From: Syntrophales bacterium
GTDB taxonomy: Bacteria > Desulfobacterota > Syntrophia > Syntrophales > UBA2251
Length of the DNA: 64,000 nt
Reading direction: 5' to 3'
Assembly: GCA_035358035.1 (NCBI GenBank)
Contig: DAOPOS010000011.1
Coordinates: 1,477 to 65,476 of the forward strand
The position numbers and the translations under genes were made by a program. The notes beneath the pieces are model-generated. The model searched no databases, was not told the origin of the DNA, and worked only from the letters and a program-made list of their open reading frames with translations. Below are positions 4,563 to 62,302 of the stretch, piece by piece; position 1 is the first letter of the stretch; every line of letters begins with the position of its first letter.

Positions 4563-4582
4563 CGGAACGGTCGGGGCGACCG

Positions 4583-23424: not shown

Positions 23425-23489
23425 ACACTCTTCCTCCTTGAAAAAATGAATTAAATGTTCGAATCGTCGCGGTGTCCGGACGATCCGTC

Positions 23490-38692: not shown

Positions 38693-38941
38693 TCAGTGTT
38701 CGAGCTTGACGAAATCCGGAATGTTCTCCAAACGGATCCCGTCCTGAACCTGCTCGAGAAAGGTTCTCCCTTCGCGGGTAATGTGGACGAGACCCTCCAG
38801 GTTGAGGATGACGCTGTACTTTGTCTGAAGGCGGTTCTGGCATGTATGGTTGAGAACGGCGGAGGCGTCCTGGTCCAGCACCCCGTCCACCTTCATGACG
38901 ATCGTGCGGTCATCGACGAACTTTTCCTTGATGTAGATCAT
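38693..38941 (-). CDS. small STAS-like protein (by-eye assignment)
   Basis: ATG 38941. 82 aa: MIYIKEKFVDDRTIVMKVDGVLDQDASAVL...SVILNLEGLVHITREGRTFL resembles an anti-sigma antagonist fold. Upstream of, and co-oriented with, the activator gene. Confidence 0.4.
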   Translation of the reverse strand: MIYIKEKFVDDRTIVMKVDGVLDQDASAVLNHTCQNRLQTKYSVILNLEGLVHITREGRTFLEQVQDGIRLENIPDFVKLEH

Positions 38942-39142: not shown

Positions 39143-39181
39143 TGCACAACATCCCGATGGCCGGAAACAGCATGTTGCGCA
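39143..39181. promoter_or_regulatory. candidate enhancer (UAS) inverted repeat TGCACAACAT-N19-ATGTTGCGCA
   Basis: 9 of 10 positions complementary. Ends 75 nt upstream of the sigma-54 promoter at 39257. The same half-sites recur at 46364-46401. Confidence 0.55.
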
Positions 39182-39272: not shown

Positions 39273-39458
39273 TAGAAGGATAGATCCGGAAGGCAGGCCA
39301 ATCCCCCCATCAATAGCAGGTTGCCCGGGAGGGGTCCCGGTCTTTCGGGGCCGACCGCGGGCGCCTTGGCCGATCGGCCTTCATCATGCGGGGGGCAGGA
39401 TCAGCGGACGACTGTGCGTCAGGCGTCGACGTTTGCCGACGGGAGCCAGGGGGTTCAG

Positions 39459-40253
39459 ATGCTGAGGGTCACCAATCTCGAAACCACCTACAACGACATC
39501 ATTCTGGCCTTGAAGGGCATTTCCCTCGAGGTCCCGACGGGACGCATCGTTGCCCTCCTCGGCGCCAACGGCGCCGGCAAGACCACGACGATCAACACCG
39601 TCTCCGGGATCCGGAAAGCCATCGACCTTGAGATCGAGGACGGGAAGGTGGAGTTCGACGGCCGGGACATCGGCGCCCTCGAACCGCACGAGGTGGTCTC
39701 CCTGGGCATCTCACAGGTCCCGGAAGGACGTCGTATCTTTGCCGAACTGACGGTGGAAGAAAACATCCTTATTGGTTCCTATGGCCTGAAGGAGAGAAAA
39801 AACTTCATTCGCAACGAGGAGATGGTCTTTAACTATTTCCCGATTCTCAAGGAGCGGCGGCGGCAGCAGGCCGGCTATCTCAGCGGCGGGGAGCAGCAGA
39901 TGCTGGCCATCGCTCGGGCCCTCATCGCCGAGCCCCGGCTGATCATGCTGGACGAACCGTCCCTCGGGCTGGCGCCCCTGGTCGTGAGAGAAATATTCGA
40001 CATCCTCGGCCATATCAACCGGGAGCGGGGGGTGGCCATCCTGCTGGTGGAGCAGAACGCCAACGTGGCCCTGTCGATCGCCCACTATGGATACATTATG
40101 GAGACCGGCCGCATCGTGATGGAGGGGCCCAGTGACGTGCTTCGCGAAAATCGGGACATCAAGGAATTTTACCTGGGCCTGACGGATGTGGGCACCCAAA
40201 AAAGCTTCCGGGACGTCAAACATTACAAGAGACGGAAACGATGGCTGTCATGA
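39459..40253 (+). CDS. liv-type ABC transporter ATP-binding protein (LivF-like) with basic C-terminal tail
   Basis: Internal ATG 39459. GANGAGKTT, LSGGEQQML and LDEPSLGLAP motifs. Tail: GLTDVGTQKSFRDVKHYKRRKRWLS. Confidence 0.85.
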   Translation: MLRVTNLETTYNDIILALKGISLEVPTGRIVALLGANGAGKTTTINTVSGIRKAIDLEIEDGKVEFDGRDIGALEPHEVVSLGISQVPEGRRIFAELTVEENILIGSYGLKERKNFIRNEEMVFNYFPILKERRRQQAGYLSGGEQQMLAIARALIAEPRLIMLDEPSLGLAPLVVREIFDILGHINRERGVAILLVEQNANVALSIAHYGYIMETGRIVMEGPSDVLRENRDIKEFYLGLTDVGTQKSFRDVKHYKRRKRWLS

Positions 40254-41029
40254 ATCAGGAGGCTTCCCTTCAACTCGAGATCGCGGATCTGTCCATGAGT
40301 TTTGGCGGGATCCAGGCCATTCGAGGCGTCTCCTTTGGGGTCCAGCGGGGCGAGATCTATTCCATCATCGGACCGAACGGGGCCGGGAAGACCACCATCT
40401 TCAACTGTATCAGCGGGATTTACCGGGCCAAAACGGGCAGCATCCGCTTCGAAAACCGCGAACTGATCGGCCTCAAGCCGGACCGGATCGCGCAACTCGG
40501 CGTCTCCAGGGCGTTTCAGAACATCGCCCTGTTCAAGGGAATGACCGTTCTCGACAACCTGATGTCGGCGCGCGTCCACCTCATGAAGTACGGATTGCTC
40601 GGGGCCGCCGTTTACCTCGGCCGCTGTCTTCGGGAAGAGGTTCAGAACCGCGACGAAGTCGAAGACGTGATCGAGTTTCTCGATCTGCAGCCGGTGCGCA
40701 AATCGCCGGTCGGGAGCCTGTCGTACGGCCTGCAGAAGCGGGTGGAGCTGGCCCGGGCCCTGGCCATGAAGCCGAAGCTGATGCTGGTCGACGAACCCGT
40801 GAGCGGCATGAATCTCGAAGAACGCGAGGACATGGCGCGGTACATCATCGACATCAACGAGGAGAGGGACATCACGGTGATCCTCATCGAACATGACATG
40901 GGACTCGTCATGGACCTGTCCGATCGCGTGACGGTCCTGAATTTCGGCACCAAGATCGCTGAGGGCGCCCCGGGGGACGTCAGCAGGAATCCGGAGGTGG
41001 TCCAGGCGTACCTCGGGGAGGCGGGATGA
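40241..41029 (+). CDS. liv-type ABC transporter ATP-binding protein (LivG-like)
   Basis: GPNGAGKTT, and the LivG-type insertion before the signature YGLQKRVELARAL. 13-nt overlap with the upstream gene. Confidence 0.85.
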   Translation: MAVMNQEASLQLEIADLSMSFGGIQAIRGVSFGVQRGEIYSIIGPNGAGKTTIFNCISGIYRAKTGSIRFENRELIGLKPDRIAQLGVSRAFQNIALFKGMTVLDNLMSARVHLMKYGLLGAAVYLGRCLREEVQNRDEVEDVIEFLDLQPVRKSPVGSLSYGLQKRVELARALAMKPKLMLVDEPVSGMNLEEREDMARYIIDINEERDITVILIEHDMGLVMDLSDRVTVLNFGTKIAEGAPGDVSRNPEVVQAYLGEAG

Positions 41030-41078
41030 CATCGCGCGGCCCGATGCCTTGTCCCGACCGGTTGGGGGAAAGGGATTC

Positions 41079-42890
41079 ATGGAGAGGGTAGAGACCACGC
41101 TGCCGAAACTCCTGTTGGAGAAGGCCCGGATCTATGGGGGGCGGGTCGCCATGCGGGAGAAGTACAAGGGCATCTGGCAGGAAATCTCGTGGAACGCCTA
41201 CCGGGACAAGGTCGAGGCCTTCTCGCTGGGCCTTGTAGCGCTGGGCATGACGAAGGGGGATCAGGTCTCGATCTTGGGAGAGAACTGCCCGGAGTGGATC
41301 TTTGCCGACCTCGCGATCCAGAGCGTGGGTGGCGTGGCGGTCGGCATCTATCCGACGAATTCGGCCGACCAGGTCCGGTATATCCTCGACCACAGCGAAT
41401 CCCGGTTCGTGGTCGTCAAGGACCAGGAGCAGGCGGACAAGGTACTCGCGGCCCAGGCGTCGCTGCTCCGCCTTGCGAAGATCATCGTGATCGACATGAA
41501 GGGGCTGCGCCATTACGAAGAGCCCCTCATCGTCAGCTATCGGGAGGTGGAAGCGGCCGGCCGGGAGGCGGCCCGTCAGGACCCGGAACGCTTTCCCCGG
41601 CTCGCGGCGGCGACCCGGCCCGAGGATGTGGCCTTTATCGTCTACACCTCGGGCACCACGGGGCATCCCAAGGGCGCCATGATTTCGCACCGGAACATCA
41701 TCCATCAGATCGTCAACGGCCTGCAGCCGATCCTGCGCTTCACGGATCGGGACACCCTGCTGTCCTATCTGCCGCTGTGCCATATCCTGGAGCGAAACCT
41801 GTCCATGGCAATGCCCCTGGTGTTCGGCTACACTATTAACTTTGCCGAGTCGATCGAGACGGTTCAGCAGAATATTCAGGAGATCGGTCCGACGTTCTTT
41901 GCCGCCGTTCCGCGGATCCTCGAAAAGCTCCACTCGAGCGTCCAGATCCGGATGGGGGATTCAACGCGGTTCAAGCGCTGGGTGTATCGGGCCTGGCAAC
42001 CGGTCGGGCGCCGGGTTTCGCAGTTTGAAATGAGCGGCGAGCCGGTTCCCTGGGGCTGGCGGCTCCTGTACGCCCTGGGTTATCTCTTCAGCTATCGCGC
42101 CATCCGGGACAAGATCGGAATGCTCAACTGCCGTTGCCTGATGAGCGGCGGCGCCCCCATTGCGCCCGAGATCCTGAGTTTCTTCCGTTCGCTGGGCGTG
42201 CGGACCATCGAGATGTACGGGATCACGGAAACGGCGGGAACGGTGTCCGGTCCCCAGGGCACAATCAAGCATGGCTCCGTGGGCGAGCCGTGCCGGGCGC
42301 TGGAACTCAAACTGGCCGAGGACGGGGAGATCCTGCTGCGCGGGGATTCGATCTTTGTCGGATACTACCGGGATCCCGAGGCGACCCACGATGTCCTTCC
42401 AGACGGCTGGTTCCATACGGGCGATGTCGGCGAACTCGACGCGGACGGCCATCTTTACATCGTCGACCGCAAGAAGGACATCATCATCACCTCCGGAGGG
42501 AAAAACATCTCTCCCTCGGAGATCGAAAACAAACTCAAGTGCAGCACCTACATCAAGGAGGCCATCGTCATCGGGGATCGCCGCAACTACATCACCGCCC
42601 TGATCCAGATCGATTACGACAACGTGGGCAACTGGGCGCAGAAGAACAGGATCCCCTACACGACCTACCGGAGTCTGGCGGAAAATCCGTCCGTCCACGA
42701 TCTGATCCGCGAGGAGGTCCATGCCGCGAACGAAGGTCTCGCCCAGGTGGAAACCGTCAAGAAGTTCAAGATCCTGGAGAAGGAACTGGACCAGGATGAC
42801 GAGGAACTGACGGCCACGCAGAAGGTGAAACGCAAAATCATCGAGGAGCGGTTCAAAGGGGAAATCGACGCGATGTACACGGGGCGGTGA
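41079..42890 (+). CDS. long-chain-type AMP-forming acyl-CoA ligase embedded in the ABC operon
   Basis: YTSGTTGHPKGA, YGITETAG and GWFHTGDVGELDADGHLYIVDRKKDII motifs. Internal ATG 41079. Confidence 0.85.
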   Translation: MERVETTLPKLLLEKARIYGGRVAMREKYKGIWQEISWNAYRDKVEAFSLGLVALGMTKGDQVSILGENCPEWIFADLAIQSVGGVAVGIYPTNSADQVRYILDHSESRFVVVKDQEQADKVLAAQASLLRLAKIIVIDMKGLRHYEEPLIVSYREVEAAGREAARQDPERFPRLAAATRPEDVAFIVYTSGTTGHPKGAMISHRNIIHQIVNGLQPILRFTDRDTLLSYLPLCHILERNLSMAMPLVFGYTINFAESIETVQQNIQEIGPTFFAAVPRILEKLHSSVQIRMGDSTRFKRWVYRAWQPVGRRVSQFEMSGEPVPWGWRLLYALGYLFSYRAIRDKIGMLNCRCLMSGGAPIAPEILSFFRSLGVRTIEMYGITETAGTVSGPQGTIKHGSVGEPCRALELKLAEDGEILLRGDSIFVGYYRDPEATHDVLPDGWFHTGDVGELDADGHLYIVDRKKDIIITSGGKNISPSEIENKLKCSTYIKEAIVIGDRRNYITALIQIDYDNVGNWAQKNRIPYTTYRSLAENPSVHDLIREEVHAANEGLAQVETVKKFKILEKELDQDDEELTATQKVKRKIIEERFKGEIDAMYTGR

Positions 42891-42932
42891 GATCGCGGCC
42901 GTGACGTCCGGATCGGGAAGAGGGGTGGAGGC

Positions 42933-43832
42933 ATGGAGAAGATTCTGGAGATCCTGTTGAACGGCCTGTCCATGGGGGCCATTTACGCCCTGCTGGCCCT
43001 GGGGTTCGTCCTCATCTTCAAATCGACCGGCGTCATCAATTTTGCCCAGGGCGAACTGGCCATGGTGGGGGCCTTCATCTGCTACAGCTTCGCGACGCTC
43101 ATGGACGTGCCTTATGTCTATGCCTTCCTTATCGCCCTGATCGGCGGCCTCGTTCTGGGCGCGATCGTCTATCAGGTCTTCTTCCGGACGATGGTGGGCG
43201 AGCCCCTGTTCTCGACGATCATGGTGACCGTCGGGCTCGCGAGCATCCTCACCTGCGTGGCCGGCCTCATCTGGGGACACGACGTCTATTCGCTCCGCTC
43301 CCCCTTCACGGACAAGATCTTCAACCTCGGGGGGATCATCTTCGCCCAGGGTTCGTTCTTCACCATTATCGTGTCCGTTGCCCTGTTCGCCCTGTTTGTC
43401 CTGTTTTTCAATCGCTCGCTCCTCGGGATCTCCATGCGCGGGACGGCCGAGGACCCCGATACCGCGGGGCTCATGGGCATCAACGTGAAGCGGATCCACA
43501 TGGCGGCCTGGGCGCTGGGGGCGCTGGTCGCGGCAGTGGCGGGCATGTTCCTCGCGGAGCAGAGTTTCGTCCGCCTTTCCATGAGCCATACGGGGATCAA
43601 GGCCATGGCGGCGGCGATTCTCGGGGGGATGGACAGCATCAGCGGTGCCATCCTGGGCGGGATCCTCATCGGCCTGGTCGAAGGCCTGGCCGCGAGCTAT
43701 CTGAGCGGCATGGAGCTGGGGAACTTCCACCTGGGGGACATCAAGGATGTGGCCGCCTTCGCGATCATGATCCTCGTGCTCATGGTCCGGCCGCACGGCA
43801 TCTTCGGCCGGGAAAAGGTGGAGAGGGTGTAG
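42933..43832 (+). CDS. branched-chain-type ABC permease (LivH-like)
   Basis: LLNGLSMGAIYALLALGFVLIF N-terminus; about 8 TM helices. Confidence 0.85.
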   Translation: MEKILEILLNGLSMGAIYALLALGFVLIFKSTGVINFAQGELAMVGAFICYSFATLMDVPYVYAFLIALIGGLVLGAIVYQVFFRTMVGEPLFSTIMVTVGLASILTCVAGLIWGHDVYSLRSPFTDKIFNLGGIIFAQGSFFTIIVSVALFALFVLFFNRSLLGISMRGTAEDPDTAGLMGINVKRIHMAAWALGALVAAVAGMFLAEQSFVRLSMSHTGIKAMAAAILGGMDSISGAILGGILIGLVEGLAASYLSGMELGNFHLGDIKDVAAFAIMILVLMVRPHGIFGREKVERV

Positions 43833-43840
43833 GGACCGCC

Positions 43841-44875
43841 ATGGCGAACTTCAAGGTCAGCTATCAGGCAGATACGGCGCTGTTCCAGAACCTCTGGGTC
43901 AAGTCCTGGCTGGCGATCTTCGTGGTGGCGATGATTGCGTTCCCCTTCCTGATGTCCCGTTATCAGTTGAGCATCTTGAACGAGATGGGCATTGCCGTCA
44001 TCGGCGCCCTGGGGCTGAATCTTTTGACGGGCTACACGGGACAGATTTCCCTGGGGCACGGGGCCTTCGTGGCCATCGGCGCCTACACCACCGGTCTGCT
44101 GGCCGGAACGCTTGGCGTTCCCTTTGTGATCTCGCTGCCCCTCTCCGGTCTGATGGCCGCCCTTCTGGGCATGATCGTGGGGATCCCTTCCCTGCGCCTC
44201 AAGGGGCTCTATCTGGCCCTGGGGACGCTGGCCTTCGGCTTCATCGTGGAATACGTCCTCTTCCACTGGGACCTCACCCAGGGGGATATGGGCATGGCCG
44301 TTCCCAAGATCGGCGCGGGAGGGGTGCTCATCGAAACGGAGCGGCAGTATTTCTTTCTGATCATGTCGTTTGCGGTCCTGGCCACGCTTGTCGCGAAGAA
44401 TCTCGTGCGCACCAAGATCGGCCGCTGCTTCGTGGCCATCCGGGACCGGGACATCGCCGCGGAGGCCATGGGAATCTCGCTCGCCAAGTACAAGATCATG
44501 GCTTTTGCCGTCAGCGCCTTCTACGCCGGCGTGGCGGGATGTCTGATGGCCCATTACCAGAAATGGATCGTCCCCGGAAACTTTGACATCTCCCTGTCCA
44601 TCGCGTATATTGCCATGATCGTTCTCGGGGGGATGGGAACCATCCTGGGGTCTATCCTCGGGGCCATCCTGATTACCGGCATTCCTCACGGCATTGTTTT
44701 TCTGACCGACACCTTTCGCGATACGTATCCCGGCCTCAGCGGGCTGATTGTGGATATCAAGCTGGGCATTTTCGGCCTCATCATCGTCCTCACGCTGCTG
44801 TTCGAGCCCCAGGGGCTGTTCGGGATCTATCGGCGGATCAAGGTCTACTGGAAGACCTGGCCCTTCAAGTATTGA
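43841..44875 (+). CDS. branched-chain-type ABC permease (LivM-like)
   Basis: GQISLGHGAFVAIGAY motif; polytopic. Confidence 0.85.
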   Translation: MANFKVSYQADTALFQNLWVKSWLAIFVVAMIAFPFLMSRYQLSILNEMGIAVIGALGLNLLTGYTGQISLGHGAFVAIGAYTTGLLAGTLGVPFVISLPLSGLMAALLGMIVGIPSLRLKGLYLALGTLAFGFIVEYVLFHWDLTQGDMGMAVPKIGAGGVLIETERQYFFLIMSFAVLATLVAKNLVRTKIGRCFVAIRDRDIAAEAMGISLAKYKIMAFAVSAFYAGVAGCLMAHYQKWIVPGNFDISLSIAYIAMIVLGGMGTILGSILGAILITGIPHGIVFLTDTFRDTYPGLSGLIVDIKLGIFGLIIVLTLLFEPQGLFGIYRRIKVYWKTWPFKY

Positions 44876-45033
44876 GCGGCGGGCCTGCCGTTCGCAGATA
44901 CGCGGCGGCGTCCGCCGATTTTCGTCGAAGGAGGCCGTTGTTCCGGCACAGGGATGCGGAAAGGGCCCTCGACCCCCCGGGGAGGGGCGGGGGAGACATC
45001 GATGGATCCAACCATGACAAAGGAGGGGAAGCG

Positions 45034-46248
45034 ATGAAAATCAGAACGTGGAGATGGAGTGTCGTTTTGGCGGTCGTCCTGTGCCTGTCGGTCGGCAGCG
45101 CCTGGGCGGCGGCCGTGCGCGGGGTGACGGACAAGGAAATCAAGCTGGCCTGTCTCGTGGACCTGTCGGGTCCGGGGAAGTACGGCGGACCGCCCATTGC
45201 CGATGCCTTCCGGGATTACGTGGCCTGGGTGAACGACACGGGCGGCATCAACGGCCGGAAGATCAACCTGATCGTCGAGGACAACGGGATTCTGCCCACC
45301 ACGACGATGAACGCCGCCAAGAAGGTGATCCTCAAGGACGAGGTCCTCGCCATCGCCTTCAACCTGGGCAGTGCCGGGTCGAGTGCCATCCTGCCCCTGT
45401 GTGAGGAGAACCAGGTCGTCCTGATGCCCCACGGGGCCAACAAGGAGTTCTATTCCCCCGGCAACAAATGGGTCTTCGTGCCCCATACGGTCCAGTTCAG
45501 CATGGCGTCGCGGGCGGTCGAATACATTCTCGGAAAGAACAAAAAAGCGAAGATCGGGATGATTTATCAGGACGACGATTTCGGGAAGGAAGGTCTGGAA
45601 GGCGCCCGCGCGGCGGCCAAGTTCATGAAGACCAAGCTGGTGGCGGAGGCCCCCTACAAGACCGGGACCATCGATTTCACGCCGCACATGAACGCCATGA
45701 AGGAGGCCAACGTGGACACCATCGTCCTCTGGACGTACCTGCCCCAGTCGGCCGCCATCATCAAGCAGAAGGTCAAGATGGGCTGGGATGTCCAGCTGAT
45801 CTCCAACAACACGACCGGCGTCCCGCCGCTGTTCGCCCTGACGGGAGAGGCGGCGGACGGCTACATGCTCGTCACGCCCTACGCCCCGGGACACATGGAC
45901 CTGCCGGGGATCAAGCGCATCAAGGCAATCAACGCGAAATACGGCAACCCCGCCAAGACCCTGGGCAACCCCATGTACCCGGATTACCTGTATCTGGCGG
46001 GCTGGGGGTACATCGAGGCCATGGGCCAGGGGCTCCGCAAGGCGGGGCGGAACCTGAACCCCGAAACGCTGGTCAAGGGGCTCGAAAGCGTCAAGAACTT
46101 CGACATGGGGGGGCTTTCCCCGAACATCACCTTCGGTCCGAAACAGCACGTGAGCAGCTTTTCCAGCCTCGTTCTCCGGGCGGATGGAAAGGCCAAACGT
46201 TTTGTCATCGTCGATTCGATCAAGGCGCCGCGGACGCCCCAGAAGTGA
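45034..46248 (+). CDS. periplasmic substrate-binding protein (Leu/Ile/Val-binding family fold)
   Basis: ATG 45034 after AGGAGGGG. Signal peptide MKIRTWRWSVVLAVVLCLSVGSAWA, then GVTDKEIKLACLVDLSGPG. Confidence 0.8.
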   Translation: MKIRTWRWSVVLAVVLCLSVGSAWAAAVRGVTDKEIKLACLVDLSGPGKYGGPPIADAFRDYVAWVNDTGGINGRKINLIVEDNGILPTTTMNAAKKVILKDEVLAIAFNLGSAGSSAILPLCEENQVVLMPHGANKEFYSPGNKWVFVPHTVQFSMASRAVEYILGKNKKAKIGMIYQDDDFGKEGLEGARAAAKFMKTKLVAEAPYKTGTIDFTPHMNAMKEANVDTIVLWTYLPQSAAIIKQKVKMGWDVQLISNNTTGVPPLFALTGEAADGYMLVTPYAPGHMDLPGIKRIKAINAKYGNPAKTLGNPMYPDYLYLAGWGYIEAMGQGLRKAGRNLNPETLVKGLESVKNFDMGGLSPNITFGPKQHVSSFSSLVLRADGKAKRFVIVDSIKAPRTPQK

Positions 46249-46363
46249 CCGGGTGAATCGCCCGACCCGGTCGGACACGCCGCCGATCAGGGGCCCGGAG
46301 GCGGATGCGCCCGTCGTCCGGCCCCTGCCCCCCGGGGGGTGAACAACCCCCCGACGCGCGCCC

Positions 46364-46401
46364 GCGCAACATGTGGAGGGTCAGGAAACCGTATGTTGTG
46401 C
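46364..46401. promoter_or_regulatory. candidate enhancer (UAS) inverted repeat GCGCAACAT-N20-ATGTTGTGC
   Basis: Half-sites match those at 39143-39181, and both spacers contain GGAAAC. Ends 73 nt upstream of the sigma-54 promoter at 46475. Confidence 0.55.
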
Positions 46402-46474
46402 CTCCCGAGGGGGTTTTCGGGCGGCATGAATGGCAAGCCTTTGAAATCATGGCGATCTGTTTGTGAATGAGGAG

Positions 46475-46490
46475 TGGCACCCATTTTGCT
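46475..46490 (+). promoter_or_regulatory. sigma-54 promoter, consensus TGGCAC-N5-TTGCT
   Basis: Exact match to TGGCAC-N5-TTGCW, 58 nt upstream of the SDR gene's GTG. Confidence 0.8.
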
Positions 46491-46547
46491 AACGAGACGG
46501 GATACGTATTCCAGCACGCCATCAATCATTCGGAAAGGAGAAAAAAC

Positions 46548-47312
46548 GTGGATACATCCTATCTGTCACTGCAGGGAAAAGTCGCCGTCGTCACCGGAGG
46601 GAGCCGGGGCATCGGCCGGGCCGTGGCGTTGGCGCTCGCCGATGCCGGGGCCGATGTCGTCGTCGGCAGCCGCAAGCTGGCCGATCTTGAAAAGGTCGCC
46701 GAGGAGATCAGGGCCATGGGGCGAAAGGCCCTGGCGGTGGCAATGCACAACCGCGAGGTCGAAAGCATCAGGAATTTCGTCGATACCGTCGTGAAGGAAT
46801 TCGGTCGCATCGACATCCTCGTGAACAATGCGGCCACCAATCCCGGCATGGGGCTGCTCGTCGACATGGACGAGAAGATGTACGACCAGATCATGATCAC
46901 CAACCTCAAGGGCTATACCATCCTGAGCCAGCTCGTGGGAAAGGTCATGCAGCAGCAGAAGAGCGGCAATATCGTCAACATCTCCTCCGTCGGCGGCGTG
47001 AGCCCCGATATCGGACTGGGGTTGTACTGCATCAGCAAGGCCGGGATCGGCATGCTGACCCGGGCGATGGCCAAGGAACTGGGTGATTTCGGCGTCCGCG
47101 TCAACTGCATCGCTCCCGGCGTGGTCCGGACGAAGTTCAGCCAGGCCCTGTGGAGCAATGAGCCGATGATGAAGCAGGAACTCGCCCACACGCCGATCAA
47201 ACGCATCGCCGAGCCGGAAGAGATCGGGCGGATCGCCCTGTTCCTGGCGTCGGACGCCTCGGCCTACATGACGGGGCAGATCCTGGTCGTCGACGGCGGC
47301 GGATCGATCTGA
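46548..47312 (+). CDS. short-chain dehydrogenase/reductase (FabG-like)
   Basis: GTG 46548 after AAAGGAG. TGGSRGIG, NNAA and YCISKAG (YxxxK) motifs. Confidence 0.85.
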   Translation: MDTSYLSLQGKVAVVTGGSRGIGRAVALALADAGADVVVGSRKLADLEKVAEEIRAMGRKALAVAMHNREVESIRNFVDTVVKEFGRIDILVNNAATNPGMGLLVDMDEKMYDQIMITNLKGYTILSQLVGKVMQQQKSGNIVNISSVGGVSPDIGLGLYCISKAGIGMLTRAMAKELGDFGVRVNCIAPGVVRTKFSQALWSNEPMMKQELAHTPIKRIAEPEEIGRIALFLASDASAYMTGQILVVDGGGSI

Positions 47313-47370: not shown

Positions 47371-48813
47371 ATGGGTTTAATGACCGCACAGGAGTACAAG
47401 GACAGTTTGAATGACGGGCGCATCGTCTACTACAAGGGACGAAAGATCGACAACGTCGCCACGGATCCGGATTTGAAGGCCTGCGTCGAGACCCTCGCCG
47501 TCGACTACGAAATGGCCCACGATCCTCAGTACAAGGAGCTTGCCCTCGTGTACGACGAGCAGCTGGGCGAGAATATCAGCCGCTATTACCACACGCCGCA
47601 GAACGGGCAGGACCTCCTCAAGCAGCTCGAGCTCATCATCAAGGCCACGGAACTCGGCGATGGCTATATCCCCCTGGCCCACGACATCGGCGCGGACGCC
47701 CTGAATGCGATCGCCATCACGGCGCGGTCGATGAAGGACGCCGGCAAGGTCTATCTGGAGCGCATCGAGAACTTCCGCACGTACCTGAAAAAGACGGACA
47801 AGTGCATCGTCGCGGGCGTGACGGACGTCAAGGGCGATCGGAGCCTGCGGCCTTCCGATCCGAAACAGAATCACCCCGATTTCAACGTCCGGATCGTGGA
47901 GCGGAACGACCAGGGCATCATCGTGCGCGGCGCCAAGGTCCATATCACCGGGGCGGCCTATGCCCACGAATTCTTCGTCATCCCCTGCCGGGCCATGACG
48001 GATGCGGATTCGGATTACGCCGTGGCCTTCGCCATCCAGGCGAACGCCAAGGGGATCCGGCAGATCGTTCGCCCTTTCCACGGACGGATCAGCGATATGG
48101 AGTTTCCGGTCAAGCGGGAGCTGCGCCGGATGCACACCGATTCTCTCATCATCTTCGACGATGTCTTCGTCCCCTGGGACCGGGTCTTCCTGTGCGGCGA
48201 GGTGAAGTTCGCCGCCTCCATCGTCTACAACTTCGCCCTGATGCACCGCCGCACGGGCTGCGCCTACCGCATTCCCCTGAGCGAGCAGCTCCTGGGGGCC
48301 GCCGTGGCGATCGCCGACTACAACGGCGTGGCCGATGCTCCGCACGTCAAGGAAAAGATCACGGAGTGCGTCATCTATCTGGAAACCCTTTCTGCCCTGT
48401 CCCGGTCCGCCTGTCTCGACTTCGTGGACCATGCGGGCATTCCGGTGCCCAATCCCATGACCACGAACATCGCGAAGTACCACTTCGCCCACAATTATCA
48501 CAAGATCGTCGAGATCGTTCAGGACCTGGCGGGCGGACTCCTCGTCACCGCCCCGACGTATCAGGACTGGTGCAATCCCGAGACGCACGGCGACATCGAC
48601 AAGTACCTGGGTGGAAAGGCCGGCCTGCCGACGGAAACGCGTCTGCGCATGTTCGACCTCATCCGCCGGATGACCTCGGCGGACCTGGAGACGATCTGTC
48701 TCCACGGGGAGGGTTCGCCCTACGCCGAGCGGATGACGATCCTGATGGAGGCCCGCGGGCTCATCAAGAAGTGCAAGCAGATCGTCGAGGAACTGGCCGC
48801 GATCAAGAAGTGA
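47371..48813 (+). CDS. 4-hydroxybutyryl-CoA dehydratase / HpaB-family flavoprotein homologue, apparently lacking the N-terminal Fe-S cysteines
   Basis: The C-terminal half (ADYNG, HVKEKI, LAGGLLVT, RLRMF, HGEGSPYAERMTI) resembles AbfD. The region aligned to the AbfD CxxxC reads GDGYIPLAHDIGADALNA. Confidence 0.65.
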   Translation: MGLMTAQEYKDSLNDGRIVYYKGRKIDNVATDPDLKACVETLAVDYEMAHDPQYKELALVYDEQLGENISRYYHTPQNGQDLLKQLELIIKATELGDGYIPLAHDIGADALNAIAITARSMKDAGKVYLERIENFRTYLKKTDKCIVAGVTDVKGDRSLRPSDPKQNHPDFNVRIVERNDQGIIVRGAKVHITGAAYAHEFFVIPCRAMTDADSDYAVAFAIQANAKGIRQIVRPFHGRISDMEFPVKRELRRMHTDSLIIFDDVFVPWDRVFLCGEVKFAASIVYNFALMHRRTGCAYRIPLSEQLLGAAVAIADYNGVADAPHVKEKITECVIYLETLSALSRSACLDFVDHAGIPVPNPMTTNIAKYHFAHNYHKIVEIVQDLAGGLLVTAPTYQDWCNPETHGDIDKYLGGKAGLPTETRLRMFDLIRRMTSADLETICLHGEGSPYAERMTILMEARGLIKKCKQIVEELAAIKK

Positions 48814-48976
48814 AGGCCTCCCGGTGGGAATGTCCCGGATGCGCTTTCCGCCCGCGGGCGGGGGTGCGTCCGGGCGGGGCGCCTTTTCGGGGAGTTTCGT
48901 GCCGCGCCGCTGAAGTCCGGCGTCAAGCCACGGAGGCGGGGAAGGCGCGAAGCGTTTGTTGGTGAGGAGGAGAATC

Positions 48977-50443
48977 ATGATCGGTATCACATCTTTTGGG
49001 GGGTACATCCCCCGTTTGCGATTGAGCCGGAAGCTGATTGCCCAGAACGTGGCGTGGTACTCGCCGGTCATCTGGGGCGCGGCCCAGGGGGAGAAGGCCG
49101 TGGCGAACTGGGATGAAGACGCCCTGAGCATGGCCGTGGCGGCCGCGCAGGACTGCCTGCTGGGACGGGACAGAACGCAGGTTGACGGCGTCTATGCCGC
49201 CTCGACGACCTTCCCGTTTACGGACCGTCTCAACGCCGATATTCTGGCGACGGCCCTGAACCTGAACGAGGACGGGACGGCCTGTGCGGATTTCACGGGC
49301 TGTCTGAAGGCCGGAACGACGGCCGTCATCTCGGCCCTGGAGGCGATTCAGGCCGGCGGAAAGACGCGCGTCCTCGTGGCGGCGGGCGACCAGCGGCGGA
49401 CGAAGATGGCGACCAACTTCGAAATGTTCCTGGGGGATGGGGCGGCCGCCCTGCTGCTGGGCAGCCAGGAGGTGATTGCCGAATTCAAGGGCGGCTATTC
49501 CCTCAGCTGCGATTTCATCGATCATTATCGCGGCGCCGGCAAGGAGTTCGACTACGCGTGGGAGGAGCGCTGGGTCCGGGATGAGGGATACGGCAAGATC
49601 ATCCCCCGGGCCATCGCCGGCTTCCTCAAGAAAACGGGCCTGACCATCGGCGAGTTCGACAAGGTCGTCTATCCCTGCTACTTCAGCGCCACCCACAGGG
49701 GGATCGCCAAGAAGCTCGGGCTCGATCCGGCGAAGGTGCAGAGCAACCTTCACGAGGTCTGCGGAGACACGGGCGCGGCGCACCCGCTGGTCATGTTCGT
49801 GGCGGCCCTGGAAGACGCCAGGCCCGGCGACAAGATCCTCCTCGTGGGGTTCGGCCAGGGCTGCGACGTCCTGTATTTCCAGATCACGGACGCGATGTCG
49901 GAGTATCGCGGCGGTCAGGGCGTCAAGGGCTCGCTCGCGAAGCGGGCGGAATTGACGAGTTATACGAAATTCATGAAGTTCCGGGATATCGTCACCGCGG
50001 ATCTGGGCATTCGCGGCGAGGCCAATCCGAATTCGTCGCTCAACATCCTGTGGCGGAACCGCAAGAAGCTCATCGGCCTGGTCGGCAGCCGCTGCAAAAA
50101 ATGCGGAACGCCCCAATACACCTTTACACCCGTCTGCGTGAATCCGGACTGCAACGCCGTCGGCGATATGGAAGACTACGCGTTCTCCGGTCAGAAGGGG
50201 ACGGTCTTCATGTATACGGGCGACATGCTGGCCGCTTCGGTCGATCCGCCGGCGATCTACGGGATCGTGAACATCGAGGGCGGGGGCCGGCTGCTGGCCG
50301 ATTTCACGGACTGCACGCTGGAGGATATCAAGGTGGGGCTTCCCGTCCAGATGTCGTTCCGCCGGAGGTCGAAGGACCCCGTGCGCGGGTTCAGCGGCTA
50401 TTTCTGGAAAGTCGTCCCGCAGGCGACCGAGAAGGGGGTGTAA
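48977..50443 (+). CDS. HMG-CoA synthase-like condensing enzyme fused to a DUF35 zinc-ribbon/OB-fold domain
   Basis: ATG 48977 after GAGGAGG. DEDALSMAV and FTGCLKAGT (Glu and Cys motifs). C-terminal CKKCGTPQYTFTPVCVNPDC plus an OB-fold. Confidence 0.7.
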   Translation: MIGITSFGGYIPRLRLSRKLIAQNVAWYSPVIWGAAQGEKAVANWDEDALSMAVAAAQDCLLGRDRTQVDGVYAASTTFPFTDRLNADILATALNLNEDGTACADFTGCLKAGTTAVISALEAIQAGGKTRVLVAAGDQRRTKMATNFEMFLGDGAAALLLGSQEVIAEFKGGYSLSCDFIDHYRGAGKEFDYAWEERWVRDEGYGKIIPRAIAGFLKKTGLTIGEFDKVVYPCYFSATHRGIAKKLGLDPAKVQSNLHEVCGDTGAAHPLVMFVAALEDARPGDKILLVGFGQGCDVLYFQITDAMSEYRGGQGVKGSLAKRAELTSYTKFMKFRDIVTADLGIRGEANPNSSLNILWRNRKKLIGLVGSRCKKCGTPQYTFTPVCVNPDCNAVGDMEDYAFSGQKGTVFMYTGDMLAASVDPPAIYGIVNIEGGGRLLADFTDCTLEDIKVGLPVQMSFRRRSKDPVRGFSGYFWKVVPQATEKGV

Positions 50444-50445
50444 CG

Positions 50446-51654
50446 ATGGCTACGGGAATCAGGGACAAGGTTGCCATTATTGGCATGGGATGCACCAAAT
50501 TCGGCGAACGCTGGGATTGCGGTCCGGAAGACCTGATGGTGGAGGCGTTTCAGGAATGCCTGAGCGACGCCGGGATCGGGAAGAACGAGCTCCAGGCGGC
50601 CTGGTTCGGCTCCTGCCTGGATGAGGTGAACGTCGGGAAGAGCGCGCTGCCGCCCTCCCTGGCCCTGCGCCTGCCCAACATCGGCGTGACGAGGGTGGAA
50701 AATTACTGCGCGAGCGGCACGGAGGCCTTCCGGGGCGCCGTCTACGCCGTCGCGTCGGGGGCCTATGACATCTGCCTGGCCATCGGCGCCGAGAAGCTCA
50801 AGGACATCGGGTACGCGGGGCTGCCGGAATTCTCGGCCGGGATGGGCCTGACCAACCAGCAGTGGTTCCCCAACATGACCGCGCCGGGGTGCTTTGCCAT
50901 GCTGGCCAGCGGTTACAGCGCCAAATACGGGGTGGACATGAAGGAACTGAAGCGCGCGATGGCCCACATCTCGGCGAAAAGCCACGCCAACGGTGCCCTC
51001 AATCCCAAGGCGCACCTGCGGGCGCCGGTGACGGAAGAGGTCATCCTGAAGGCCCCCATGGTGGCCTATCCCCTGGGGCTTTTCGACTGCTGCGGCGTCA
51101 GTGACGGCTCGGCCTGCGCCATTGTCGCGACGCCGGAGGTGGCCCGGCGCCTCGGGAAGAAGGATTTCGTGACGGTCAAGGCCCTGCAGATGTCGCTGAG
51201 CAACGGCGAGGAGATGTCCTACACCAACTGGGACGGCTCCGGCTTCGTCACGACGGCCAAGGCGAGCGCCGCGGCCTACCGGGAGGCCGGGATTACGAAC
51301 CCCCGGGAGGAGATCAGCATGATGGAGGTCCATGACTGCTTCTCCATTACGGAACTCGTGACCATGGAGGATCTGCACATCTCCGCGCGGGGGGAAGCGA
51401 CGAAGGACATCATGGACGGCTTCTACGACCTGAACGGCAAGGTGCCCTGCCAGGTGGACGGAGGGCTCAAGTGCTTCGGACATCCGATCGGCGCCTCGGG
51501 GCTGAGGATGATTTACGAGATGTACCTCCAGCTTCACGGCCGTGCCGGCCAGCGGCAGCTCGAGAATCCCCGATACGGTCTGACCCACAACCTGGGCGGA
51601 TTCCCGTTCATGAACGTCTGCAGCATTGCCATCGTCGGCAGGAACGAGGCCTGA
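50446..51654 (+). CDS. SCP-x/archaeal-type thiolase
   Basis: ATG 50446, 3 nt after the upstream stop. ENYCASG nucleophile motif, plus HDCFS and CFGHPIGASG. Confidence 0.8.
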   Translation: MATGIRDKVAIIGMGCTKFGERWDCGPEDLMVEAFQECLSDAGIGKNELQAAWFGSCLDEVNVGKSALPPSLALRLPNIGVTRVENYCASGTEAFRGAVYAVASGAYDICLAIGAEKLKDIGYAGLPEFSAGMGLTNQQWFPNMTAPGCFAMLASGYSAKYGVDMKELKRAMAHISAKSHANGALNPKAHLRAPVTEEVILKAPMVAYPLGLFDCCGVSDGSACAIVATPEVARRLGKKDFVTVKALQMSLSNGEEMSYTNWDGSGFVTTAKASAAAYREAGITNPREEISMMEVHDCFSITELVTMEDLHISARGEATKDIMDGFYDLNGKVPCQVDGGLKCFGHPIGASGLRMIYEMYLQLHGRAGQRQLENPRYGLTHNLGGFPFMNVCSIAIVGRNEA

Positions 51655-51748
51655 TGGATGTCCCGGGCCGGGGGAGTGCCGGGACAGACGGCGGCCCCCC
51701 GGCGATCCAGGATGATTCTGCAAGGATGAGAGGAGCGCAGGAACCGGA

Positions 51749-52657
51749 ATGCCGCCCTTGATTCAGACGGAATTCACCTCCGTGATGGGCATCCGCTATC
51801 CCATCATCGGGGCGCCCATGTTTCTGGTCTCCTACGAGGAGCTCGTCGTGGCCGTCTGCGAGGCCGGGGGGCTCGGCATGCTTCCCCTGCCGAATTACCG
51901 GACAGCGGAGCAGCTGCGGCGGGCCCTGGACGTCATCCGCTCCCGGACGGAGGCGCCGGTGGGTGTCAACATCCACCTCTCCGGAAAATTTCCCTGGCAG
52001 GAACAGCTCGATCTCTGTCTCGATCATGGGGTGAAGTTCTTCATTACGTCGCTCGGCGATCCCCGCCTGATCCTGGATGCCGTGCATGCGCACGGGGGAT
52101 GGGTGTTCGCCGACGTCGTCTCGCTCGCCCAGGGACTGAAGGCGAAAGCGGGCGGCGTGGACGGTCTGGTGGCGGTGGGGGCCGGCGCCGGCGGTCATGG
52201 TGGCCGGATCTCGACGCTTGTTCTCGTTCCGTACCTGAAGGAGGCGATCGGACTGCCCGTGGTCGCGGCGGGTGGCATCGCGACCGGCGCTCAGATGGCG
52301 GCGGCTCTCGCGGTCGGCGCCTGTGCGGTGATCGTGGGGACTCGGTTCATCGCCACGCCCGAATCCAGGGCCTCCGCGGCTTACAAGCAGGCGGTCATCG
52401 ACGCCGACCCGGACGGCATCGTCTGCACGGATCGAATCACGGGCAATCCGGCGAACTGGATCGCCGCGAGCATCGCGGACATGGAGGAGCGTCCGCCGCT
52501 CACCTCGAAAAAATGGCTGGATTTCTGGAGCGCGGGACAGAGCGTGGCCCAGGTGAGGAACATCCGGCCGGCGGCGGAGATCGTCGCCGAGATGGTGCGC
52601 GAGTATGGTGAGACGTGCCGACGCATGCAGGGCACGGTGGTATCGAACGGAACGTGA
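51749..52657 (+). CDS. nitronate monooxygenase / FabK-like FMN oxidoreductase
   Basis: YPIIGAPMFLVS, GGLGMLP and VVAAGGIATG motifs of the NMO/enoyl-reductase II family. Confidence 0.75.
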   Translation: MPPLIQTEFTSVMGIRYPIIGAPMFLVSYEELVVAVCEAGGLGMLPLPNYRTAEQLRRALDVIRSRTEAPVGVNIHLSGKFPWQEQLDLCLDHGVKFFITSLGDPRLILDAVHAHGGWVFADVVSLAQGLKAKAGGVDGLVAVGAGAGGHGGRISTLVLVPYLKEAIGLPVVAAGGIATGAQMAAALAVGACAVIVGTRFIATPESRASAAYKQAVIDADPDGIVCTDRITGNPANWIAASIADMEERPPLTSKKWLDFWSAGQSVAQVRNIRPAAEIVAEMVREYGETCRRMQGTVVSNGT

Positions 52658-52676
52658 TCAAGGGAGGAGGTCCACC

Positions 52677-53861
52677 ATGAGTAAACTGAAGGGAAAGGTC
52701 GCCATCATCGGGATCGGCGAAGTCCCCACGGGGAGATTTCCGGAGACGGCGGCCATCTATCACGCCATTGCCTCGGCCAGGCTGGCCATCCGGGATGCCG
52801 GAATCCAGAAGGACGAGATCGACTATGTCATGCCCACGGCGGCGCTGTTCAGCCCCCAGTTCAACACGGAACTCGTGACCTGTCGGGTGGCCGAGGAACT
52901 GGGGCTCAAGAACGTGAAGAAGAACTGCCAGGTGTTCGCGGGCGGTTCCAGTAGCACCTGCGCCCTGGAAATCGCCGCGAGCCTCATCAACAGCGGCGCG
53001 GCGAACATGATCCTGTTCGTCCATGCCGACCGCCTGGGGACGGGCGTCTCCGCGCAGGGCGGCATCGATCTGTTCTCCACCGCCGGGATCTCCGCGGAGT
53101 GGGAAGTGCCGTTCGGCCAGCATTACTCGGCGATCGCCGCCATGTCGACCATGCGCTACAAGTACGAGACGGGCTGTACGGACGAGCACCTCTCGGCGGT
53201 CTGCGTCTCCAACCGAAAGTGGGCGCAGCTGAACCCCAACGCGATGTTCAAGAAGGACCTGACGGTCGAGGAGATCATGGCCTCCAAGCAACTCTCCACG
53301 CCGCTGAGGGTCAAGCACTCCAACGTCCTGGCGGATGGCGGGGCGGCCTTCATCGTGACCTCGGCCGAGCGGGCGAGGGCCATCTGCGAGCGTCCCGTGT
53401 ACCTGCTGGGCGAGGGGGGCGTCGTGACCCACTTCGTCTTTTCCCAGGAACCCGATGTCAGCCGGTTCGGATGGGCCAGGGCGGGGCGGATGGCCTTCGA
53501 GGAGGCCGGGCTCACCCCCAAGGACGTCGACGTGGCGGAGATCTACGATTCCTATCCGATCTACCAGCTGATCGGCTTCGAGGAGCTCGGTTTCGCCGAG
53601 CGGGGACAGGGCGGCGAGATGTTCCTGAAGGGCGATACCTGGCCCGGCGGGAAGATTCCGACGACGACCAATGGCGGCATGCTGTCGCAGGGGCATACGG
53701 GTGCCGGCGGCGCCGTGGCCCTGATGGTCGAGACGACGCGCCAGTTGATGGGCAAGGCCGGCGTGCGGCAGGTCCAGGGGGCGCGCTTCGCGGTCGAGAC
53801 GGCCGTCGGAGGGACGTACATGGACGCCCAGGTCACCATCCTGGGAACGGAAATTCCGTAG
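52677..53861 (+). CDS. thiolase-superfamily protein lacking the catalytic cysteines (Ltp2-like?)
   Basis: ATG 52677 after GGAGGAGG. Aligned by eye to the neighbouring thiolase: NYCASG becomes FAGGSS, HDCFS becomes YDSYP, and GH is retained (SQGHTGAGG). Confidence 0.7.
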   Translation: MSKLKGKVAIIGIGEVPTGRFPETAAIYHAIASARLAIRDAGIQKDEIDYVMPTAALFSPQFNTELVTCRVAEELGLKNVKKNCQVFAGGSSSTCALEIAASLINSGAANMILFVHADRLGTGVSAQGGIDLFSTAGISAEWEVPFGQHYSAIAAMSTMRYKYETGCTDEHLSAVCVSNRKWAQLNPNAMFKKDLTVEEIMASKQLSTPLRVKHSNVLADGGAAFIVTSAERARAICERPVYLLGEGGVVTHFVFSQEPDVSRFGWARAGRMAFEEAGLTPKDVDVAEIYDSYPIYQLIGFEELGFAERGQGGEMFLKGDTWPGGKIPTTTNGGMLSQGHTGAGGAVALMVETTRQLMGKAGVRQVQGARFAVETAVGGTYMDAQVTILGTEIP

Positions 53862-53877
53862 GGAGAGGAGGTCAGTC

Positions 53878-54297
53878 ATGGATACACCCGTTAAACCCAA
53901 ACCAGTTCCGGTCGTCAATCCCTGGGCCAGGCCCTTCTGGGAGGCGGCGCGGGAAAACAAGCTGATCATCCAGCAATGCAAGGATTGCGGCACCTACATC
54001 TTCTACCCGCGGATCGCCTGCACGAACTGCTTTTCGGACAACGTGGCCTGGGTGCCGGCGTCGGGCCGGGGGAAGGTCTATACGTACACGGTCGTCGAGA
54101 GCTATCCGCCCTCGGCCTTCATTCCCGATCTGCCCTTTGTGGTCGCCGTGGTCCGCCTGGAGGAAGGGGTGCAGATGCTGAGCAACATCGTCGGCTGCGA
54201 TCCGCACAGCGTCTATTGCGAAATGCCGGTGACGGTCGTTTTCGAGAAATTGAACGAGGAATTCACCCTGCCGAAGTTCAAGCCGGTGGAAGCGTAA
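53878..54297 (+). CDS. DUF35 zinc-ribbon/OB-fold protein
   Basis: CKDCGTYIFYPRIACTNC four-Cys ribbon, followed by GKVYTYTVV OB-fold; 139 aa. Confidence 0.8.
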   Translation: MDTPVKPKPVPVVNPWARPFWEAARENKLIIQQCKDCGTYIFYPRIACTNCFSDNVAWVPASGRGKVYTYTVVESYPPSAFIPDLPFVVAVVRLEEGVQMLSNIVGCDPHSVYCEMPVTVVFEKLNEEFTLPKFKPVEA

Positions 54298-54341
54298 GGT
54301 TCCGCGGCTCGGACGGGGCGGTTGGATCAAGGAGGTGGATC

Positions 54342-54791
54342 ATGTCGCAGAAGTGCTGGGAAGATTTCGATATCGGCTTCAATTTCCGGACGCCGTCCAT
54401 CACGGTGACGGAGACGCATGTGGTGAACTGGGCGGGCTTGACCATGGATTTTTACCCCCTCCACATGGACGCGGAGTATTGCGCAAAGACGGTCTTCAAG
54501 GAGCGGATCGCCCACGGGCCGCTCATCTTCGGGATGGCCGTCGGCATGGCGGGCCTGGCGAAGGTGGAGGGCGGGTCGATCCTCGCCTGGATGGGCGTGG
54601 ATCAGATGCGCATGAAGGCCCCGGTCAAGTTCGGGGACACGATTACGGTCCATATCGAAACGGTGGAGAAGAAGGAGACGAGCAAGCCCTCGCAGGGATT
54701 GCAGACCTGGCGTTATACGGTGAAGAACCAGCGCGACGAGGCCGTCATGGTTTTCGACATGAAGTTTCTGATGCGCCGGAAAGGCGCCTGA
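54342..54791 (+). CDS. MaoC-like (R-specific) enoyl-CoA hydratase
   Basis: ATG 54342 after GGAGGTGG. Hot-dog fold motifs DFYPLHMD and IAHGPLIF. Confidence 0.8.
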   Translation: MSQKCWEDFDIGFNFRTPSITVTETHVVNWAGLTMDFYPLHMDAEYCAKTVFKERIAHGPLIFGMAVGMAGLAKVEGGSILAWMGVDQMRMKAPVKFGDTITVHIETVEKKETSKPSQGLQTWRYTVKNQRDEAVMVFDMKFLMRRKGA

Positions 54792-54857
54792 CGCCCGCGC
54801 GGACGGTCCCCCTCCCTGCCGGGGGAGGCGCCGGACGTGTTTGGAAGGAGACGGAAC

Positions 54858-56015: not shown

Positions 56016-56085
56016 GGGCCGGCCGAACCGGGGGATGAGCGGGGGGCAGCCGGACCGATTATGCGTTGACGGAAGGAGAGGGAAC

Positions 56086-58095: not shown

Positions 58096-58177
58096 AAACG
58101 GAATTGCCGCACGCCGGAGGCCGCCTGTTCTGGGAACAGGCCGGCGCCCCGGGGCCGGCGAGAAAGGAAGGAACGTC

Positions 58178-60990: not shown

Positions 60991-61102
60991 AGCGGCGGAT
61001 CCGGCAAAAGGTGAAGCCGCGGAAGGGATCGGACAGGGGGGGAAAGCGCCTGAACTTTCCTCGGTGACACACACGGTGCTTTTTAAAAAAAGGAGGTGGC
61101 AT

Positions 61103-62296: not shown

Positions 62297-62302
62297 GGTT
62301 CT

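Follow-up and report, generated by a model that had tools for sequence, protein, structure and literature searches.

A putative sigma-54 promoter with an upstream enhancer repeat precedes an enzyme operon in a Syntrophales metagenome contig

Analysis of a 64-kb stretch of Syntrophales DNA (hereafter the window) indicated that the -24/-12 element upstream of an SDR gene, designated P2, is very likely a functional sigma-54 (RpoN) promoter for an operon of enzyme genes, activated by the product of a neighbouring regulator gene that would also drive a second promoter, P1, in front of a transport operon. The operon served by P2 would begin with the SDR gene (46548) and reach ~59.7 kb or beyond. At the level of sequence, the P2 unit contains everything that is expected of a sigma-54 promoter together with its enhancer (Table 1).

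Table 1. Positions of promoter, enhancer and gene features in the window
Feature	Position	Strand	Description
Presumed cognate enhancer-binding protein	35375-38497	-	1040 aa: TPR region, GAF, AAA+, HTH_8
Putative enhancer UAS1 (transport operon)	39144-39180	n/a	GCACAACAT-N19-ATGTTGCGC
Putative sigma-54 promoter P1	39257-39272	+	TGGCTTCAATTTTGCG; 8/11 specified positions; conserved in L004
Transport operon	39459-46248	+	2 ABC ATPases, AMP-dependent ligase, 2 permeases, Peripla_BP_6 binding protein
Three GC-rich hairpins	46246-46273, 46288-46327, 46333-46353	+	3' of the binding-protein stop; none with a U-tract
Putative enhancer UAS2	46364-46401	n/a	GCGCAACATGTGG-N12-CCGTATGTTGTGC; inverted 13-nt arms at 46364-46376 and 46389-46401
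IHF-like bend site	46434-46448	-	CAAGCCTTTGAAATC on +, TTTCAAAGGCTTG on -; ~-67 to -53
Putative sigma-54 promoter P2	46475-46490	+	TGGCAC-CCATT-TTGCT = TGGCACCCATTTTGCT; GG at -25/-24, GC at -13/-12
Predicted transcription start	46500-46502 (~46501)	+	12 nt past the C of the -12 GC
Ribosome-binding site and SDR gene	46533-47312	+	RBS GGAAAGGAG; GTG 46548 to 47312, 254 aa; adh_short_C2, 9e-62
Rest of the enzyme array	47371-59761	+	All co-directional: AbfD-like dehydratase, HMG-CoA-synthase-like/DUF35 fusion, thiolase, NMO/FabK-like reductase, thiolase-like protein + DUF35, MaoC hydratase, acyl-CoA dehydrogenase, enoyl-CoA hydratase/3-hydroxyacyl-CoA dehydrogenase, AMP-ligase

Results

Promoter P2 and its predicted transcription start

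The preliminary description of this DNA had reported an exact match to the sigma-54 consensus at 46475-46490, located 58 nt ahead of the SDR start, and both statements were borne out. All 11 of the 11 specified positions agree with the consensus, the GG and GC dinucleotides (the latter at 46488-89) are spaced exactly 10 nt, and the distance holds between the end of the element at 46490 and the GTG at 46548. The element is intergenic and oriented toward the SDR gene, the first gene of the enzyme operon, which has an AGGAG ribosome-binding site 6 nt 5' of its GTG. A motif scan of the 64 kb window returned P2 as the sole zero-mismatch TGGCAC-N5-TTGCW, a perfect -24/-12 element being expected by chance between 0.005 (Markov simulation) and 0.05 (analytic) times per window. 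No sigma-70-like promoter was detected by scanning 46000-46800. Standard sigma-54 geometry would place the start of transcription at ~46501, giving a predicted 5' UTR of ~47 nt.

In front of the orthologous genes of two related loci, the -24/-12 element reads TGGCATCCATTTTGCT (L004) and TGGCACTAATCTTGCA (L048), and the corresponding comparison across further loci sets GGCACCCATTTTGCT of P2 against GGCACCCATCTTGCA of L005, L021 and L035. On this comparison it is P2, and not P1, that resembles the family-typical promoter, and the 73 nt gap upstream of P2 is likewise typical.

Two further near-consensus -24/-12 elements, at 6719-6734 (-) and 43635-43650 (-), read TGGCACCGCTGCTGCT and TGGCACCGCTGATGCT and have 15 of 16 bases in common. 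The latter lies antisense within a permease gene, both are without an enhancer upstream, and they were taken as chance or coding-sequence similarity. No rpoN gene was found within the 64 kb window, which is part of a metagenome contig; identical pieces of this contig are present in ENA and Logan assemblies.

The enhancer repeats

The inverted repeat previously noted upstream of P2, GCGCAACAT (46364-46372)-N20-ATGTTGTGC (46393-46401), was recovered at the same positions, with 73 nt from its end to the T of the -24 element, which puts UAS2 at ~-137 to -100 relative to the predicted start. The repeat had been described as a pair of half-sites, of which the coordinates were right, but two quasi-palindromic arms of 13 nt each are the more fitting description. 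A logo of 40 arms from 20 non-redundant modules gave the consensus (T)GCRCAAYATnTnG, extending each arm to 13 nt rather than 9, and positions 4-13 of the arm form a partial palindrome (CAAYA/TnTnG). The arm centres lie ~20-22 bp apart, or two helical turns, and each arm is probably the site of one dimer, with both dimers on the same side of the helix.

The same enhancer motif had been proposed for P1 and P2, and this held insofar as the repeat is present at both; the two copies nonetheless differ in their spacers (19 vs 20 nt) and P1 is the weaker promoter (8/11). UAS1 ends 76 nt from P1. The exact 9-mer GCRCAACAT occurs five times in the window, and four of these copies are the arms at 39144/39172 and 46364/46393. 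The fifth, at 59026, lies inside a coding region and is unpaired, with no partner arm. The paired motif GCRCAAYAT-N17-22-ATRTTGYGC was observed twice against a chance expectation of 2.6e-5 per window, and was absent from all of 200 simulated windows. Both copies in the 64 kb are intergenic, lie 73-76 nt 5' of a -24/-12 element and face an operon, and no additional enhancer-promoter module was found anywhere in the window. The possibility that P2 is a recent copy of P1 was rejected, as the GGAAAC shared by the two spacers belongs to the right arm throughout the family rather than to P1 and P2 in particular.

When the modules were aligned with MAFFT, a third conserved block, YAAC-N4-5-TGAAAT, emerged ~40 nt 5' of the -24 element; this block corresponds to the IHF consensus WATCAANNNNTTR in reverse. 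At P2, the IHF-like site agrees with 8 of the 9 specified positions of that consensus, which may not be the consensus of the host phylum. When the best IHF match was determined for the linkers of 20 modules, the mean mismatch was 1.85, compared with 2.47 +/- 0.15 for shuffled linkers, and none of 1000 shuffles reached 1.85. The position of the IHF-like site at -41 from the -24 element is kept in several loci, and the match is poor in some modules, including that of P1. The site between the enhancer and P2 had been overlooked in the preliminary description.

The enhancer-binding protein

The regulator gene adjoins P1 and is divergent from the transport operon. Its product matches Sigma54_activat (PF00158, 3.7e-69) in addition to HTH_8, and contains a Walker A motif (GETGVGKE), the motif LFLDEIG and a GSFTGA loop, a loop variant that has been reported to be compatible with activation (PMC4641369). 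When compared with the NCBIfam equivalogs (NifA, FhlA, NorR, AtoC, PrpR, PrdR and others), the regulator fell below every cutoff, the best match being to NifA with 409 bits against a cutoff of 529. The N-terminal 538 aa had no relative in the PDB except for weak TPR matches, and the sensor region corresponded to no named family in Pfam, NCBIfam or PDB. A search of the literature found no paper on the regulator, the motif or the gene cluster.

Conservation of the C-terminal HTH (NERRHILWAL..T.WKVRG.GGAAE.L...STL.FRM.K..I.R) is 90% or more in every orthologue, and the HTH of two outgroup enhancer-binding proteins differs from it. Such conservation fits one shared DNA specificity and thus one regulator for P1 and P2, as had been suggested from the window itself; that suggestion gains further support from the association between module and regulator that is described below.

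An 82-aa ORF (38693-38941, -) lies immediately 5' of the regulator gene and is co-directional with it; this ORF is 90% conserved in L004, is absent in more distant relatives and matched no Pfam family. In 12 of the 13 relatives checked (L005, L008, L009, L013, L016, L018, L020-L022, L024, L037 and L043), a TTGACA hexamer is located 6-8 nt past the enhancer and faces the regulator gene, and in most of these it is followed after ~17 nt by a -10 hexamer of the TAnnnT type. This pair is probably the regulator's own sigma-70 promoter and, because it abuts the enhancer, gives a hint of autoregulation. The window has no TTGACA element beside UAS1, where the 82-aa ORF intervenes.

Distribution of the module across related loci

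A scan of genomes with the regulator retrieved 42 full-length orthologues with identities of 44-96%, their loci originating from metagenome-assembled genomes of the Syntrophales, Smithellaceae, Desulfomonilaceae and Desulfatiglandales. A search for the exact CAACAT/ATGTTG core returned four loci only, and the search was relaxed to GCRCAAYAT/ATRTTGYGC tied to a nearby -24/-12. With a module defined by no more than 2 mismatches in the 18 arm positions and by a -24/-12 element matching at 8 or more of 11 positions, modules were found in 21 of the 42 orthologue loci (22 modules in 713 kb), as against none of 79 control loci (786 kb), and the control loci still yielded none when 3 mismatches were allowed. 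The half of the orthologue loci that was free of modules included many short contigs, or loci in which the operon start lay beyond the fetched flank. The geometry of the modules was confined to an arm spacer of 18-20 nt and a gap of 70-77 nt between the repeat and the -24 element.

In ~13 relatives the regulator gene is divergent from one module, behind which flavoprotein, AbfD-like, SDR and transporter genes follow. The lineage of the window and L004 has a rearranged gene order and two modules. The regulator of L004 is 96% identical to that of the window and its intergenic DNA 85-91% identical (91% in the P2 gap), a similarity too high for the comparison to have much footprinting power, such that the P2-specific footprint is that of L048 only.

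The first gene behind the module in most relatives encodes a 527-aa FAD-dependent oxidoreductase that is phytoene-desaturase-like (L005, L008, L013, L016-L022, L024 and L037; ~7.9-9.6 kb in each). This gene has ~74-91% identity among the relatives and is absent from the entire 64-kb window. In L038, one enhancer-like repeat (~4606-4642, within 4520-4734) is situated between divergent -24/-12 elements that are 72 and 74 nt away, and looks like a bidirectional enhancer. In L018, an enoyl-CoA hydratase/dehydrogenase gene and a second transporter are preceded by a further divergent sigma-54 promoter pair near 19650/20042.

The collinear relative L048

L048 was obtained from a metagenome scan with the SDR protein, and the remaining 79 loci of that scan, mostly of unrelated SDRs, were reused as the controls referred to above. 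Its SDR is 93% identical to that of the window, and the locus is collinear with 25.8-61.0 kb of the window (66-82% nucleotide identity) on both sides, that is, with the helicase and ATP-grasp genes at the 5' side and from the SDR and AbfD-like genes onward. The interval of the window from 31.4 to 46.5 kb, which contains the ligases, the regulator and the transport operon, is absent from L048, and no regulator gene was found within 10 kb of the L048 module. Window 27.9-30.7 kb, window ~48.8-51.3 kb, the NMO-like gene and the MaoC gene are also absent, and the locus appears to be built from insertable blocks.

A complete module precedes the SDR operon of L048, consisting of an enhancer with 2 mismatches and a spacer of 19 nt, an aligned IHF-like block and the element TGGCACTAATCTTGCA, which is located 52 nt ahead of an ATG that aligns with the GTG at 46548 of the window. 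Identity between the window and L048 amounts to 85% and 69% in the enhancer arms and 46-56% in the linkers. As the gene 5' of the L048 SDR is divergent, read-through is impossible there, and the retention of the module before the SDR operon despite this divergent neighbour indicates that the enzyme operon has its own start. The earlier proposal that P2 starts the enzyme operon separately is strengthened by L048, in which the module alone fronts the SDR operon, but is weakened by the lack of a canonical terminator before P2 in the window; it is plausible that the transport and enzyme operons are separate units.

The transport operon and the inter-operon gap

Three hairpins, UAS2 and P2 are located in the 299 nt that separate the binding-protein gene from the SDR gene, and no other gap of the array is as large. 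The stem GACCGGGT-N10-ACCCGGTC, which had been placed at 46247-46272, was found there, partly covering the stop codon of the binding-protein gene (TGA, 46246-48). Its interpretation as a canonical terminator was ruled out, as a U-tract is absent. A scan of 46000-46800 for canonical intrinsic terminators gave 0 terminator-like sites, the stems having no T-run, and in view of this, transcription from P1 may extend into the enzyme genes as well.

Folding of 46240-46362 gave -68.2 kcal/mol (z = -2.8). In the second hairpin, one compensatory change was identified relative to L004 (G46293/C46322 to T/A), and this double change is a weak hint that the structure may be under selection as a terminator, an attenuator or a stabiliser of the mRNA 3' end. 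Between P1 and the start called for the first ABC ATPase lies a long leader of ~176 nt (39283-39459), which is GC-rich, with hairpin-forming stretches. The sole match of an Rfam scan was a tRNA, with neither a riboswitch nor a leader identified in the 5' UTR of P1 or P2.

The enzyme array and the wider window

The AbfD-like protein of the array has the HpaB fold, and its closest solved relative is the 4-hydroxybutyryl-CoA dehydratase AbfD (1u8v, 1e-71). Beside the thiolase, the HMG-CoA-synthase-like/DUF35 (OB-fold) fusion (48977-51654) recalls the archaeal thiolase/HMG-CoA synthase/DUF35 complex, and a second pair comprising a thiolase-like protein and DUF35 (52677-54297) resembles the BbsAB pair. 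Past the enzyme array, co-directional with it and cut off by the window end, is a second LIV-type transporter set, encoding a Peripla_BP_6 protein and two ABC ATPases (60497-63837, +). Elsewhere in the window, a gene for an NrpR-type regulator (NRD1_2 and HTH_12; 22177-24557, -) lies beside a glutamate dehydrogenase gene. NrpR is known mainly as a nitrogen repressor of methanogenic archaea.

Discussion

In the mechanism that we propose, sigma-54 holoenzyme would occupy TGGCAC-N5-TTGCT as a closed complex unable to open by itself. The TPR-GAF-AAA+-HTH_8 protein would bind at 46364-46401, where two dimers, probably on one face of the helix, would seed the regulator hexamer, and an IHF-like bend at ~-60 would loop the enhancer onto the promoter. 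The N-terminal TPR/GAF part would sense an effector, presumably a substrate of the pathway or an acyl-CoA intermediate, whereupon ATP hydrolysis would open the P2 promoter and transcription would begin near 46501. With the same regulator acting on P1 and P2, uptake and catabolism would constitute one regulon with two enhancer-dependent starts. Such a mechanism is ordinary for sigma-54, and the regulator family is uncharacterised and belongs to no named family.

P2 could be real but minor, with the transport and enzyme genes transcribed mainly as one message from P1 and P2 serving to top up or fine-tune the distal genes. The missing U-tract terminator between the binding-protein and SDR genes would permit such an arrangement, the transport and enzyme genes are all co-directional, and ~13 relatives have their AbfD-like, SDR and transporter genes in one array behind a single module. 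Against this, P2 is closer than P1 both to the consensus (11/11 vs 8/11) and to the geometry of the family (73 vs 76), the L048 module would drive the SDR operon alone, and the gap contains three stable hairpins, one of them with a compensatory change; we regard a supplementary role of P2 as rather unlikely.

It is improbable that the repeat is instead bound by another factor, for example a repressor of another family encoded elsewhere, with the adjacent regulator binding at another place or nowhere. The retention of the repeat in L048, where the regulator gene is absent within 10 kb, speaks for such a factor. The fixed distance of 70-77 nt to the -24 element over loci of 44-96% identity, the association of the repeat with loci that encode regulator orthologues (21/42 vs 0/79) and the conserved HTH of the regulator all speak against it, as does the location at ~-100 to -140, which is typical of this class of enhancer and not of repressor operators. 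In Desulfovibrio, enhancer sites are mostly found within ~100 nt of the promoter (PMC4641369). The remaining alternative, that the matches arose by chance or that the repeat is an RNA hairpin such as a terminator of the transport operon, with neither promoter nor enhancer present, has only a very slight probability and is effectively refuted by the chance figures and the distribution of the module. The repeat is transcribable in principle, being downstream of a co-directional operon, but by chance the repeat would be expected 2.6e-5 times and the promoter no more than 0.05 times per window; the repeat also occurs in divergent intergenic regions without an upstream co-directional gene (L048 and most relatives), and its A/T-rich arms of 9-13 nt with a loop of 12-20 nt would make a poor hairpin in comparison with the GC-rich stems nearby.

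The reading of P2 as an enhancer-dependent promoter can be set beside several known systems. Pu/XylR and Po/DmpR are catabolic sigma-54 promoters of Pseudomonas with their regulators. As in those systems, the window encodes a one-component enhancer-binding protein beside the pathway genes, and has dyad enhancer sites ~100-180 bp 5' of the -24/-12 element; the known promoters have an IHF bend site in between, for which the IHF-like site of P2 is a candidate counterpart. The effector there is the pathway substrate, and the same is presumed here. The sensor differs, being a TPR and GAF region of ~700 aa rather than a V4R/XylR-N domain, the arms read GCRCAAYATnTnG, the host belongs to a strictly anaerobic lineage of the Thermodesulfobacteriota, and the present system is described from sequence alone. 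At glnAp2 (NtrC) and atoDAEB (AtoC), adjacent dyad sites on the same face of the helix recruit dimers into the active oligomer, AtoC being the regulator of short-chain acyl-CoA catabolism. The two adjacent dyad sites described here would likewise lie on one helical face; unlike NtrC and AtoC, which are two-component regulators activated by phosphorylation, the regulator has no receiver domain.

The enhancer-binding proteins RedR1 and RedR2 of Aromatoleum anaerobium are reported to control three sigma-54 promoters of one anaerobic catabolic pathway (PMC10084136), and so share with the present case the control of several enhancer-dependent units by one regulator system. The regulators of the resorcinol pathway differ in architecture as well as in the pathway controlled, whereas here there are two promoters and a single nearby regulator gene. 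In Desulfovibrio vulgaris, studies of OrpR/orp and of the sigma-54 regulome have described operons, including divergent ones, that are co-regulated by an enhancer-binding protein, IHF and sigma-54 (PMC8359166, PMC4641369). That work concerned the same broad group of anaerobes and similarly used comparative genomics for the reconstruction of regulons, but its regulators are not orthologous to the one described here, and both the motif and the target pathway differ.

There is, in our estimation, an even chance that the 37-38 bp enhancer module is the signature of an undescribed family of one-component enhancer-binding proteins that controls an AbfD-like pathway, and that the cassette is mobile. 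Members of this family may have the architecture TPR-GAF-AAA+-HTH with ~1030 aa and be widespread in the Syntrophales, Smithellaceae, Desulfomonilaceae and Desulfatiglandales. The pathway may comprise a 4-hydroxybutyryl-CoA-dehydratase-like enzyme, an SDR and a LIV-type transporter with an embedded acyl-CoA ligase, joined in most relatives by the phytoene-desaturase-like flavoprotein, and the enhancer-promoter cassette may move as a unit when operons are rearranged. If this were true, the motif would define the regulon directly and the regulator would lead to the substrate of the pathway.

Knowledge of sigma-54 transcription itself is left unchanged by these findings. For an uncultured syntroph, they provide a regulatory annotation in which two putative starts depend on one regulator and on enhancers with a defined DNA motif, and this motif could help to follow the regulon through dozens of Thermodesulfobacteriota genomes. 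The compact and portable pair of promoter and regulator is a candidate biosensor for the substrate of the AbfD-like pathway, and the predicted regulon would tie a transporter to a pathway that is beta-oxidation-like and includes an AbfD-type dehydratase.
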